This document shows, in pieces, positions 19,601 to 22,600 of a stretch of DNA of 64,000 nt (position 1 is the stretch's first letter; the number at the start of each line of letters is the position of its first letter). A program made the position numbers. The stretch is from the NCBI RefSeq assembly GCF_030384885.1, contig NZ_CP128613.1, one strand, 5' to 3'. Source of the stretch: Escherichia coli. Its GTDB lineage: Bacteria > Pseudomonadota > Gammaproteobacteria > Enterobacterales > Enterobacteriaceae.

Positions 19601-22600
19601 AACACAGCAACTGGCGGATGATTAACTTGCCGGTTGGCCCGTTGGTGGACGGCAAACCGATTTATACGCTCTACATCGCGCTGTCTATCGATTTTCATCT
19701 TCATTACATTAATGATTTGATGAATAAACTTATTATGACCGCATCGATCATCAGCATCCTGATCGTCTTTATCATGCTGTTGGCGGTACATAAAGGCCAC
19801 GCGCCAATTCGCAGCGTCAGCCGTCAAATCCAGAACATTACCTCGAAAGATCTCGACGTTCGCCTTGACCCGCAGACCGTGCCGATTGAGCTGGAACAGC
19901 TGGTACTGTCGTTCAACCATATGATCGAGCGTATTGAGGATGTCTTTACCCGCCAGTCCAATTTCTCAGCGGATATCGCTCACGAAATTCGTACGCCAAT
20001 TACGAATCTCATTACGCAAACGGAAATCGCCCTCAGCCAGTCGCGCAGCCAGAAGGAGCTGGAAGATGTGCTCTACTCTAATCTCGAAGAGCTGACGCGA
20101 ATGGCGAAAATGGTCAGCGATATGCTGTTTCTCGCTCAGGCCGATAACAACCAGTTAATCCCCGAAAAGAAAATGCTCAACCTGGCGGATGAAGTTGGCA
20201 AAGTGTTCGATTTTTTCGAGGCGTTAGCGGAAGATCGCGGCGTAGCACTACGGTTTGTTGGCGACAAATGTCAGGTTGCGGGCGATCCGCTGATGCTGCG
20301 TCGGGCGCTAAGCAACCTGCTTTCTAACGCTCTGCGTTATACGCCGCCCGGAGAGGCAATTGTAGTGCGCTGCCAGACGGTCGATCACCAGGTGCAAGTT
20401 ACCGTCGAAAACCCCGGTACGCCCATTGCGCCCGAGCATTTACCGCGTTTGTTTGACCGTTTCTACCGCGTTGATCCTTCCCGCCAGCGAAAAGGTGAAG
20501 GTAGCGGCATTGGGCTGGCGATAGTGAAATCGATTGTTGTCGCGCATAAAGGCACGGTTGCAGTAACGTCAGATGCGCGGGGAACAAGGTTTATGATCAA
20601 ACTACCGGAGAAAGGTTAATTAGTTAGTTCAAACTCAAAGAGTGATGTATCGCCTTCTGTTATTATTTATCAATAAAACAGGGAAGACCTTATTGGTCGT
20701 CTGAAATCGACGGTTATTCATTTTCGGATATTTACGAGATATTTAGATATGCAATTTAATCAAATTCGTGTTTCTACCAATTGTAGAGCACAATGCTATT
20801 ACTAAATTTTCATCACTATAAAAGAATCGGCTATAATATAAAGCGCAGTCAGGCATCATTAATCTCTATATTATTCACACAATCTATTTATCAAGTGAAT
20901 TTGATAAATTCCTAATTTAAAATATTCACTATTAAGCCAGCGTCTAACGACGTTAAGATGGCAATGTGCAGATCATGTTATCAGGGTGGGGCGGTAGCGT
21001 ATATTCCTTATACAAACCATCATTCATTTCAATAATGTTTATTGAGTTATTTATTATTGTGAATAAAAAGACATTACAAATATTGGTTTGACTTTGCATA
21101 TCAGGTGTTTTTTTTGTTACTCGATGTAATATACGAGCCTGTCCTTAATAACATCGTGAACCCGTCAGTTGAGTTTGTGATTATTTTGTTGAGTCAACAG
21201 CCCCCTGTTTCTCTGAAGTAAAATCCCGGACAAAATCATCACATAACCATGACACTTTTCTGATATTCCCCGGTAACGCCTGAAGCCTGCCCGCTTACCT
21301 GAAGGCGCAGTCTGCGGGCAGGCACCGGATAAGTGAAGAGACTGACCAGTATGCCGGAGGCCACCGGCTGAAACAGGCCGGAAACACGCAGTATGACTAT
21401 GACGCCGCAGGCCGGATGGTCAGCCGCACCAGGCACCGTGACGGCTACCGCCCGGAAACAGAGCGGTTCCGGTGGGACAGCCGGGACCAGCTGACCGGGT
21501 ATTGCAGCGCACTGGGGGTGCAGTGGGAATACCGCCACGACGCCAGCGGCAGACGGACGGAAAAACGCTGCGACCGGAAGAAAATCCGTTTTACGTACCT
21601 GTGGGACGGCGACAGTATTGCGGAAATGCGGGAATACCGGGATGATAAACTGTACAGCGTACGGCACCTGGTGTTTAACGGCTTTGAGCTGCTGAGTCAG
21701 CAGTTCAGCCGGGAAAGGCAGCCGCATCCGTCCGTGGCCCCGCAGTGGGTGACGCGGACGAGCCATGCGGTAAGCGACCTGACAGGCCGCCCGGTGATGC
21801 TCTTTAACAGTGAAGGTAAAACCGTCTGGCGGCCGGGACAGACCAGCCTGTGGGGGCTGGCACTCAGCCTGCCCGCAGACACCGGCTACCCGGACCCGCG
21901 CGGGGAACTGGACCCGGAAGCCGACCCCGGCCTGCTGTATGCAGGACAGTGGCAGGATGCAGAATCCGGGCTGTGCTATAACCGGTTCCGGTACTACGAG
22001 CCGGAAACCGGGATGTACCTGGTGAGTGACCCCCTGGGGCTGGCCGGGGGGGAGCAGACTTACCGGTATGTGCCTAATCCATGTGGGTATGTTGATCCTT
22101 TGGGATTAGCAACGTGTCCCATAATCAGACAGCGGGTGCTTGCTAACCTCGAAGCCAGTCGGGCAGCAAGAGTTACATCAAATTTTGGTAAGCCTCTGGT
22201 TCAGGGAAATAAAACGATTGGCGATAAAGTAAGGGATATAATTGCCAAAGAGAGGGGAACCACTCTAATTGAACAAAATTATAGAGTGACAGGAGGATTA
22301 AGGCGTATTGACGTTGTTGATGGAGTAACGGGTATTGAATCTAAAGTCGGTCGAACAGGGATAACTGCCCGAGTACGGCAAGAGGTAGCCCGTGATATTA
22401 AGATTTTGAGAAGTGGGCAACTTGATCAAATTGAATGGGTGTTTACAAGAAGTCCAACTACAGGGAAGATTGGGCCAACTAAACCACTTGAAGATCTGTT
22501 AAATAAACATGGTATACCGATTATTTATCGATAAGGAGTGATAGTGTGAAACTCAAACCGATTGGTGATTTTTTAATTAATAGTGGGTTCGTGAAAAATA

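Follow-up and report, generated by a model that had tools for sequence, protein, structure and literature searches.

The AT-rich block between cusS and a fragment of an rhs gene in a 64-kb stretch of Escherichia coli DNA (hereafter the window) is, judging from sequence comparison, the non-coding 5' leader of the vgrG-rhs (T6SS) operon beside cusS and not a stand-alone element, and it abuts the orphan Rhs fragment only through a recent deletion. The best joint explanation, which we consider very probable, is that the block is the leader and left arm of a vgrG-rhs island, that 8,947 bp of this island were recently lost, and that a distal promoter of the former operon (Pd) was retained and would now reach the orphan pair, i.e. 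the Rhs fragment and its candidate immunity gene. The block is thus an ordinary AT-rich regulatory leader in a unique but unremarkable deletion allele.

Table 1. Features in and around the AT-rich block (positions of the window; Pd, distal sense promoter)
Feature	Position	Strand	Basis or remark
Island-type cusS 3' tail (...RFMIKLPEKG-stop), replacing ancestral ...RFVITLPA-stop	20593..20619	+	Allele comparison
Island, i.e. DNA absent from the ancestral cusS-nfrB arrangement	20607..27408		AT-rich block as probable left arm
leaderL, left half of the block, cusS-locus-specific, AT-rich, non-coding	20620..20884		Genome survey
Terminator-like hairpin with T-rich tail, 75 nt past the cusS stop; candidate cusS terminator	20694..20716	+	Prediction
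Putative antisense promoter TTTATA-16-TATAGT (20842 to 20815), start ~20809, towards cusS	20809..20842	-	Prediction and EDL933 start
leaderR, right half of the block, common to the paralogous yncH-vgrG/rhsE locus	20885..21297		Homology
Imperfect 17-nt palindrome AGTGAATTTGATAAATT / AATTTAAAATATTCACT overlapping Pd; candidate operator	20894..20930		Repeat search
Putative Pd: -35 GTGAAT (20895-20900), 17-nt spacer, -10 TAAAAT (20918-20923), inferred start A20931	20895..20931	+	EDL933 homology
Best-conserved leader core, would be transcribed from Pd; GATC site and weak CRP-like site (21058-21073)	20945..21100		Conservation profile
Pho-box-like direct repeats (TATCAGAAAAGTGTCATGGTTATGTGAT on the minus strand)	21238..21267	-	K-12 PhoB peak and scan
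Perfect 10-bp GC-rich inverted repeat GCCTGCCCGC ... GCGGGCAGGC, 19-nt loop, no T-tail	21285..21323		Repeat search
Deletion junction, leader ...CCCGCTTA / CCTGAAGG... Rhs core, 2-nt 'TA' microhomology	21296..21299		Alignment to 2013C-4282
Orphan Rhs core and C-terminal toxin fragment; frame open from ~21283-21284, first ATG 21416	21298..22534	+	Pfam RHS_repeat
Candidate cognate immunity gene (DUF4304)	22546..23103	+	Pfam PF14137; annotated DUF4304 protein in 2013C-4282

The leader and the island beside cusS

The block (20620-21297) starts directly behind the cusS stop codon (20617-20619) and has a GC content of 34 % (0.341), versus 51.5 % in cusS, 63 % in the Rhs core and 0.505 in the whole window, where it ranks within the bottom 0.44 % of all 678-bp segments. 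Along the sequence, the GC content is 0.54 over the final 300 nt of cusS, 0.29-0.34 in the block and 0.62-0.68 in the Rhs core, in agreement with the sharp drop and the abrupt switch described in the initial annotation. The long A/T runs that it also reported are present, but modest, i.e. a single T8 at 21108 and mixed A/T runs of up to 14 nt. The AT content is well above average over several hundred bp, which is a trait of H-NS-silenced regions. As initially proposed, the block carries no coding signal, the longest stop-free stretch being 63 codons versus a mean of 66 in shuffled sequences. The claim that no ORF exceeds about 20 codons has to be corrected, since mechanical ORFs of 25-48 aa exist, e.g. 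one of 48 aa at 20953-21099 (minus strand) and one of 41 aa at 20966-21091 (plus strand), though their lengths do not exceed chance expectation and none is kept in frame between alleles.

Comparison with rhs leader regions identified the block as the cusS-vgrG spacer of island-bearing strains. Window positions 20560-21297 are 99.9 % identical to this spacer in 2013C-4282, a strain with the same cusRS-cusCFBA genes upstream. The right half (leaderR) is around 90 % identical to full yncH-vgrG loci and to the K-12 DNA directly upstream of the rhsE pseudogene, i.e. the yncH-rhsE spacer, which matches window 20885-21283. In 120 metagenome contigs, leaderR adjoins only cusS or yncG-yncH, with vgrG nearly always next, and at both loci (cusS and yncH) the leader is collinear into the vgrG 5' region. 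The left half (leaderL) is absent from the yncH locus and occurs as a single copy in 2,418 of the 5,426 complete E. coli genomes, where two allele classes can be distinguished, one in 90 genomes with at least 95 % identity (86 of these with at least 99 %) and one in 2,328 genomes with about 71 %. The allele in the window is type A, while EDL933 and most other E. coli carry type B; the two types are 86-94 % identical around Pd and 66-72 % over most of the leader. One search had placed the block at up to seven sites per genome, but a multi-copy repeat was ruled out, as a conserved 25-mer of the leader is found in two contexts only and leaderL is single-copy; the surplus sites may stem from the cusS and Rhs-core ends of the query. 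The same 25-mer gave no match among 100,044 species representatives, and from these comparisons the leader looks confined to E. coli.

In K-12, E. whittamii and one divergent E. coli lineage, cusS is followed after 149 bp by nfrB, and the K-12 cusS-nfrB segment matches only window positions 20498-20606 and 27409-27693 (blastn). Relative to this ancestral arrangement, foreign DNA begins at 20607, around 13 nt before the cusS stop, and the intervening island is absent from all three. These comparisons support the initial proposal that the block is the left arm of an inserted, horizontally acquired island. The insertion of this T6SS auxiliary island is placed at the cusS 3' end, ahead of nfrB. 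In the island-type tail of cusS, the two island alleles share just 67 % identity, versus 95-97 % for the rest of the gene, and the ancestral tail is present in K-12, E. whittamii and Citrobacter-like forms. That the K-12 tail is a deletion scar was ruled out, as E. whittamii and Citrobacter indicate that it is ancestral. The island contains vgrG, a DcrB/EagR-like chaperone gene, rhs, its immunity gene, orphan rhs-CT/immunity modules and ISAs1 copies, and the leader of such a cusS-to-vgrG, DcrB-like chaperone, rhs and immunity island is found in about 2,400 of the 5,426 complete E. coli genomes.

The counterpart in EHEC O157:H7 (EDL933 and Sakai), i.e. the cusS-vgrG1 spacer of the vgrG1-rhsF/G island, shares with the block its locus, its role and a conserved Pd with a mapped start. 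In contrast to the window, these strains carry the type-B allele (71 % identity in the left half, 66-72 % downstream of ~21100), and an intact vgrG-rhs operon still follows; in EDL933, the left half has additional deletions, and the loss of 10 bp disrupts the proximal promoter spacing.

The 8,947-bp deletion and the orphan Rhs fragment

The window corresponds to strain 2013C-4282 save for one clean deletion of 8,947 bp, with positions 18867-21297 matching locus positions 1-2431 of that strain (2 mismatches) and positions 21296-31918 matching 11379-22001 (0 mismatches over 10.6 kb). Since the latter segment lacks any mismatch, the deletion must be very recent, and it shows no sign of selection. 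The exact breakpoint is 21297/21298, with the leader-side sequence CGCTTA/TCACATTA (slash, breakpoint). Therefore, the right edge of the block is this junction and not 21282, as initially annotated; 21283-21284 is merely the opening of the Rhs reading frame past an in-frame TGA. The same junction was found neither in the other loci compared nor in complete E. coli genomes. The inverted repeat across the junction (Table 1) was made by the deletion as well, its arms lying 8.97 kb apart in 2013C-4282.

The deletion took away vgrG with its proximal promoter and ribosome-binding site, the chaperone gene, the full-length rhs, its immunity gene and the start of the orphan core; what now follows the leader is the orphan rhs-CT fragment and the DUF4304 gene alone. 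The deletion at the 'TA' microhomology joined the leader to the orphan fragment, and it is an ordinary outcome within a common T6SS effector island. The fragment matches the orphan ORF annotated as 'RHS repeat domain-containing protein' in 2013C-4282 with 100 % identity, entering it 312 nt past its start; it has no start codon before ATG 21416, a weak ribosome-binding site and no secretion (PAAR/N-terminal) part. The RHS repeat, C-terminal domain and DUF4304 gene downstream of the block resemble the orphan rhs-CT/immunity modules of 'C-terminal displacement' arrays. Such modules usually follow a full-length rhs and can recombine with it, whereas the main gene is absent here, so that reactivation by recombination is no longer possible at this locus.

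One of the closest known parallels in structure is K-12 rhsE, where the leader is likewise fused to a truncated Rhs core by the loss of vgrG and 5' rhs. Compared with AR_0137, K-12 has lost 4,432 bp, and its left breakpoint (CGCTTA) is that of the window. In contrast to the window, the K-12 fusion lies at yncH and not at cusS, joins a different position of the Rhs core, lacks the left half of the block and supplies an in-frame ATG.

Promoters and candidate protein-binding sites

Pd was located through the Cappable-seq start 675571(-) of EDL933, 405 nt upstream of the vgrG1 ATG, which maps to window 20931; the homologous base sits 7 nt past the -10 element, the start itself coming from the type-B allele. 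In EDL933 it is classed as an orphan TSS and is not significantly regulated. The hexamers and spacer of EDL933 are unchanged in the window (the K-12 paralogue has TGAAAT instead of TAAAAT as its -10), and this homology supports the retention of Pd as a sigma-70 promoter. Matching the consensus at 3/6 positions in the -35 and 5/6 in the -10, Pd was missed by a consensus scan with a threshold of 4/6 per hexamer. The initial annotation had suggested a promoter for the orphan toxin/immunity pair. By homology to EDL933 a promoter is probably there, but since the leader is that of the vgrG-rhs operon and was joined to the orphan by deletion, Pd did not evolve for this pair.

The proximal promoter of the operon (TTGTAC-17-TATTAT), whose start 14 nt before the vgrG2 ATG was seen in 7 of 8 conditions, lies inside the deleted segment. 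The deletion would therefore have made the distal promoter of the old operon the nearest one upstream of the orphan pair. No terminator-like site is predicted between 20931 and 21600, and a transcript from Pd would cross 367 nt of leader before entering the rhs-CT/DUF4304 pair. Considering that the orphan has no early start codon and no secretion part, this transcription may be without consequence. The hairpin behind cusS is the sole terminator-like site in 20400-21600, a count no higher than in shuffled sequences, and is not essential, as its region is deleted in EDL933. On the other strand, the EDL933 Cappable-seq start 675709(+) maps to 20809 and coincides with a predicted promoter, suggesting by homology that at least one antisense promoter fires towards cusS. 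The K-12 promoter TTGACT-17-TATTAC predicted in PMC3946193 was discarded as not conserved, its spacer being 4 nt longer in the window and 12 nt shorter in the type-B allele. By eye, a sigma-54-like -24/-12 element (TGGTTTGACTTTGCA) was noticed at ~21085, with a spacing one nucleotide short.

With 29-34 % GC, the block is the kind of DNA that H-NS coats and, by homology, a candidate for xenogeneic silencing. H-NS, RNA polymerase and weak PhoB binding have been reported for the K-12 paralogue upstream of rhsE (PMC3946193; PMC10294691), and Table 1 of PMC10294691, citing Kahramanoglou 2011, lists this K-12 region as H-NS-bound. The initial suggestion of nucleoid-protein silencing holds as far as this paralogue, 90 % identical to the right half, carries it. 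The palindrome over Pd contains TTGATAAATT (20901-20910), which matches the H-NS nucleation motif at 9 of 10 positions; this motif is not enriched over chance across the window. As judged from sequence, the block resembles H-NS-silenced AT-rich island regions, including T6SS clusters, in its low GC content, foreign origin, promoters on both strands and H-NS-bound paralogue, and H-NS would keep the leader largely silent.

For PhoB, a weak ChIP-seq peak (score 1) with no measured regulation is reported in K-12 on TATCAGAAAAATGTCATG upstream of rhsE (PMC10294691), from which the window differs by 1 nt, and a Pho-box scan gave a match at 21238-21255 with 3 mismatches. Scans of the block for Fur box, CRP and H-NS motifs gave nothing or chance-level matches, the CRP-like match at 21058-21073 included.

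Another non-coding element directly upstream of a vgrG gene, with its own promoter and modulating expression according to the h3R data, is h3R of the EHEC hcp3-vgrG3 region (PMC13141884). Unlike the block, h3R is 209 bp long and not AT-rich, and any homology is limited to the vgrG ribosome-binding site and start, which are lost in the window; blastn (word size 7) against the Sakai T6SS cluster gave only chance matches of 12-21 nt.

Alternative readings and biological meaning

The strongest alternative, possible although clearly less probable than a leader with a retained, reaching Pd, is that the block is an inert relic of a decaying island, with promoters and protein sites of no consequence in this genome. 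In its favour, the deletion is clean and very recent, and many further deleted forms of this island are known, among them K-12 rhsE, NCCP12480, R32_14_1F and several metagenome contigs. The Rhs fragment behind the block has neither a start codon nor its N-terminal part, and PhoB sites of this type are mostly described as transcriptionally inert (PMC10294691). Against this, the sequence of Pd is undamaged and the same as that of a promoter whose start has been mapped, and no terminator is predicted ahead of the orphan pair. In addition, an orphan module can be of benefit through its immunity gene even if the toxin is missing.

It is an unlikely proposition that Pd, the palindrome and the first 70-170 transcribed nt form a dedicated, hitherto undescribed vgrG-rhs control module with its own regulator and that, separately, the 8-bp right end is a deletion hot spot. 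Pd, the palindrome and the early transcribed part are 86-94 % identical across the two paralogous loci and the alleles, versus 66-72 % for the remaining leader. Somewhat less likely still is that the right end serves a mobile unit as its dedicated site of attachment or recombination and that this site placed the junction. In the leader, the breakpoints of three independent deletion alleles fall within 8 bp of one another (CGCTTA in the window and K-12 rhsE, CACATTA in NCCP12480), those of the window and NCCP12480 coincide in the Rhs core as well, and a 15/16 match to the ancestral cusS tail lies in the adjacent vgrG 5' region. However, the island carries no integrase or recombinase gene apart from ISAs1 copies and a group II intron, there are no direct repeats at its ends, the junction microhomology of just 2-5 nt is typical of illegitimate recombination, and other deletion variants break inside vgrG or rhs, the comparison comprising three events.

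A small regulatory RNA or structured 5' UTR made from the orphan start (~20931-21160) is improbable: the EDL933 sense start lies 405 nt from vgrG and is classed as orphan, and the first 70 to 170 nt past it are the best-conserved part of the leader, but an Rfam scan of 19500-23600 returned nothing in the block at E <= 1, the fold z-scores of the conserved core are -0.73 and -1.02 on the two strands, RNAalifold on six copies gave a positive, i.e. penalising, covariation term with 2 of 92 pairs compensated and many broken, and no terminator is predicted, the T-run at 21108 lying in an indel-variable stretch. Least credible are encoded small proteins, e.g. from the 25-aa ORF 20958-21035 or the 48-aa minus-strand ORF: short ORFs do exist and one begins 27 nt past the inferred transcription start, but their lengths are those that base composition predicts, indels of +1 and -4 nt between alleles in the conserved core break the frame while the nucleotides stay conserved and thereby rule out a conserved ORF, the minus-strand ORF lacks its ATG in the type-B allele, and the ribosome-binding sites are unconvincing.

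On the preferred reading of a leader that retained Pd, the odd juxtaposition of leader and orphan is explained by a fresh deletion in a common T6SS effector island, and nothing exotic is needed. The finding raises no new question of wide interest; its practical use lies in annotation and in studies of vgrG-rhs island regulation, as likely promoters can now be assigned to a stretch that lacks annotation in thousands of E. coli genomes, including the one upstream of K-12 rhsE. If the hot spot were true, deletions would repeatedly turn full islands into leader-orphan fusions like K-12 rhsE. Regardless, island decay can put orphan toxin/immunity genes behind the promoter of a former operon.

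The block between cusS and the Rhs fragment

After the cusS stop codon (TAA, 20617-20619) the GC content falls from 0.54 to 0.29-0.34, and around 21300 it climbs to 0.62-0.68, i.e. the sharp drop and the abrupt rise at the Rhs core described in the initial annotation were both measured. At 0.341 (20620-21297; 0.505 window-wide), the block ranks in the lowest 0.44 % of equal-size windows, and only around 22200-23250, i.e. toxin tip and immunity gene, is the 64-kb window as AT-rich. The claim that no ORF exceeds about 20 codons is not literally right, since the block holds mechanical ORFs of 25-48 codons; its longest stop-free stretch has 63 codons (mean 66 in shuffled sequence of the same composition). 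Of the long A/T runs also mentioned, T8 at 21108 holds, with no second homopolymer of at least 6 nt. The block is a sharply bounded, genuine AT-rich non-coding segment. A conserved ORF in its core was ruled out, as +1 and -4 nt indels between alleles keep the nucleotides and lose the frame; the block contained no Rfam family, its fold energies were not significant (z=-0.73 and -1.02), and six leader copies showed no covariation.

In the nearest genome, strain 2013C-4282 (NZ_CP027579.1), the cusR-cusS-spacer region differs from 18867-21297 of the window by 2 mismatches, and a stretch 8.95 kb further on matches 21296-31918 over 10,623 bp without a mismatch. By these collinear matches, offset on the right side, the window is the 2013C-4282 arrangement minus a clean deletion of 8,947 bp. 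The missing stretch starts with the final 66 nt of the spacer, where the vgrG ribosome-binding site lies, and goes on through vgrG, the chaperone gene, the full-length rhs gene and its immunity gene to the first 312 nt of the orphan annotated as ‘RHS repeat domain-containing protein’. The junction joins CCCGCTTA to CCTGAAGG at 21297/21298, with ‘TA’ as the sole sequence common to both sides, and does not recur in any of the 5,426 complete E. coli genomes or the 195 fetched loci. The orphan, with Pfam RHS_repeat, comes next, then a DUF4304 gene and finally ISAs1 copies that a group II intron interrupts.

The deletion generated an inverted repeat, 10 bp long, perfect and GC-rich (GCCTGCCCGC / GCGGGCAGGC, 19-nt loop, 21285-21323), which spans the junction and could give a stable hairpin in transcripts crossing it; lacking a T-tail, it is not an obvious terminator. 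Further downstream lie two segments of ISAs1-family transposase (23890-24641 and 26544-27295, within 23510-27300), each 98.3 % identical to the 2013C-4282 counterpart of the other. The 505-codon ORF between them, 24719-26236 (-), carries the annotation group II intron reverse transcriptase (ltrA) in 2013C-4282.

Island insertion, leader alleles and breakpoints

In K-12, 149 bp separate cusS from nfrB, and K-12 sequence matches only 20498-20606 and 27409-27693 of the window. E. whittamii and a divergent species cluster of E. coli have both this arrangement and the K-12 CusS tail (...VITLPA-stop), and the tail in Citrobacter species is related (...TLPKHAI-stop). The absence of 20607-27408 from K-12, E. 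whittamii and the divergent cluster shows that this segment is inserted DNA, with the block as its left arm, as had been proposed; the terminal few codons of cusS were replaced in the insertion as well. The K-12 tail as a deletion scar was rejected because the outgroups show it to be ancestral. Just right of the leader, the vgrG 5′ region and the ancestral cusS tail (GTKATCACATTACCCGCTTAA) have ATCACATTA(C/T)CCGC in common (15/16), and CCCGCTTA is found across from this match. The piece resembles a circularly permuted tail, for which no fitting integration model was found. In the cryptic-clade Escherichia sp. MOD1-EC7003 (L134 5400-6606), an island-type cusS tail (VIKLPERE-stop) is followed by other AT-rich DNA (GC 0.37) that has no blastn likeness to the block, on a contig that stops 1.1 kb further on.

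By megablast (query 20560-21340), the block lies 3′ of cusS in about 2,340 of the 5,426 genomes, i.e. at least 63 at ≥99 % and about 2,270 at about 77 % identity. Its left half (20620-20884) is single-copy, restricted to the cusS locus and sharply split into allele classes (90 genomes at ≥95 %, 2,328 at about 71 %), and its right half (20885-21297) recurs at about 90 % identity in the spacer that separates yncH from a second vgrG-rhs island, the K-12 copy lying directly 5′ of the rhsE pseudogene. In 120 metagenome contigs carrying a conserved 25-mer, the contexts were cusS and yncG-yncH only, with vgrG next in nearly all and other internal deletions in several; the 25-mer had no match in 100,044 species-representative genomes. 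Between allele A (window and 2013C-4282) and the commoner allele B (e.g. EDL933 vgrG1), a sharp dimorphism (equivalent of 20593-21363, L001 versus L002) begins 27 nt short of the cusS stop and extends as far as the vgrG ribosome-binding site, with a whole-leader identity of 66-72 % versus 93-99.6 % in the flanking genes; no intermediate leader was found among the 5,426 genomes.

The left breakpoints of three independent leader-to-Rhs fusions all fall within 8 bp in the leader (compared regions: window 21290-21305, L003 6395-6415 and L005 7180-7207). The Rhs core breakpoint TA/CCTGAAGG is common to the window and NCCP12480, which differ in that one has it within the orphan and the other within the main rhs gene, and the microhomology is only 2-5 nt. 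With few events behind them, this clustering and the cusS-tail permutation are curiosities.

R32_14_1F (L006 3061-6052) shows another decay state of the cusS locus, with immunity-like genes, SMI1/KNR4 among them, and an ISAs1 pseudogene directly after cusS, and no leader, vgrG or rhs. Several metagenome contigs (L011, L026, L091, L100, L106, L113, L119 and L120) have a truncated vgrG joined to an internal rhs position, or deletions within vgrG; these could be real decay alleles or the result of repeated Rhs cores collapsing in assembly.

Features of the leader, its alleles and its fusions
Feature	Position	Strand	Detail
cusS			A vs B identity 95-97 %
Last 27 nt of cusS			A vs B identity 67 %
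Left half of leader			A vs B identity 71 %
Leader segment	20850-21000		A vs B identity 86-94 %
Leader segment	21100 to vgrG ribosome-binding site		A vs B identity 66-74 %
vgrG			A vs B identity 93 %
Chaperone gene			A vs B identity 99.6 %
Pd -35	20895-20900	+	GTGAAT, 17 nt 5′ of -10
Pd -10	20918-20923	+	TAAAAT, start 7 nt later
Pd sense start	A20931	+	homologue of EDL933 675571(-)
Antisense start	20809	-	homologue of EDL933 675709(+)
Antisense start	21214	-	homologue of EDL933 675305(+); -10 degraded in window allele
EDL933 675202(+)			maps into segment deleted from window
Window fusion	21290-21305		breakpoint CGCTTA/
K-12 rhsE fusion			breakpoint CGCTTA/; 4,432 bp lost
NCCP12480 fusion			breakpoint CACATTA/
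cusS-tail likeness	L007 6785-6805		K-12 cusS 3′ end
cusS-tail likeness	L002 ~6735-6755		vgrG 5′ region right of leader
cusS-tail likeness	L001 ~8735-8755		vgrG 5′ region right of leader

Promoters, protein binding and the lost operon

Cappable-seq of EDL933 places four starts in the cusS-vgrG1 spacer, i.e. 675571(-) in sense and 675202(+), 675305(+) and 675709(+) in antisense orientation (PMC10469882, supplementary files 6, 7 and 11). We positioned them on the window by aligning the spacer, so that the window promoters are homology-based. The entire distal sense sigma-70 promoter, Pd, which overlaps a 17-nt imperfect palindrome (20894-20930), is identical in EDL933 and the window, and the antisense start at 20809 coincides with a consensus-scan prediction (TTTATA-16-TATAGT). 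EDL933 vgrG2 (yncH locus) has a proximal start, 14 nt ahead of its ATG, in 7/8 conditions (PMC10469882); its promoter, TTGTAC-17-TATTAT, is present in 2013C-4282 within the segment missing from the window, where the distal promoter is the sole one left. In the two EDL933 vgrG leaders (L132 675167-675759; L133 2052048-2052867) the promoter defects appear complementary: the cusS-locus leader, of type B, keeps the distal TAAAAT promoter with its mapped start and has its proximal spacing broken by a 10-bp deletion, with no proximal start seen, and the yncH-type leader combines a weakened distal -10 (TGAAAT) with an active proximal start.

No terminator-like site was predicted in 20931-21600, and a Pd transcript would run through 367 nt of leader into the orphan fragment (first in-frame ATG, 21416; immunity gene start, 22546). 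The suggested promoter for the orphan toxin/immunity pair stands as a putative promoter, given the EDL933 start homologous to 20931, but not as one made for that pair, since it belonged to the deleted vgrG-rhs operon.

Among the RNA polymerase sigma-70 sites listed by genomic SELEX is the K-12 yncH-rhsE spacer, with the mark ‘HNS’ (PMC3946193), and 5′ of K-12 rhsE there is a weak PhoB ChIP-seq peak (score 1) on TATCAGAAAAATGTCATG and a region flagged as H-NS-bound after Kahramanoglou et al. 2011 (PMC10294691). The idea of a nucleoid-protein-silenced region thus goes in the right direction, the listed H-NS binding being that of the K-12 paralogue. In the window, a Pho-box-like site at 21250-21267 (-) has one change versus the K-12 rhsE box, plus a third weak repeat, and TTGATAAATT (20901-20910) is a 9/10 match to the H-NS nucleation motif, whose consensus reportedly goes back to Lang and colleagues in 2007; the window holds no excess of such matches, and Fur-box and CRP scans gave nothing beyond chance. 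The window's best Pho/CusR-type direct-repeat match, TTGTCATTTTCCTGTCAC at 18403-18420 (-), lies in the cusR-cusC divergent promoter region and corresponds to the K-12 cusR/cusC PhoB ChIP site.

The EHEC regulatory region h3R, 5′ of vgrG3, has a role analogous to that of the block but no homology with it. Taken as island arm, promoter and silenced region, the block had been read in the right direction, the deletion origin and the promoter's lost operon being missed. The block is an ordinary regulatory leader, that of a vgrG-rhs island which is common and horizontally acquired, and its place next to an orphan toxin fragment is the product of a recent deletion.
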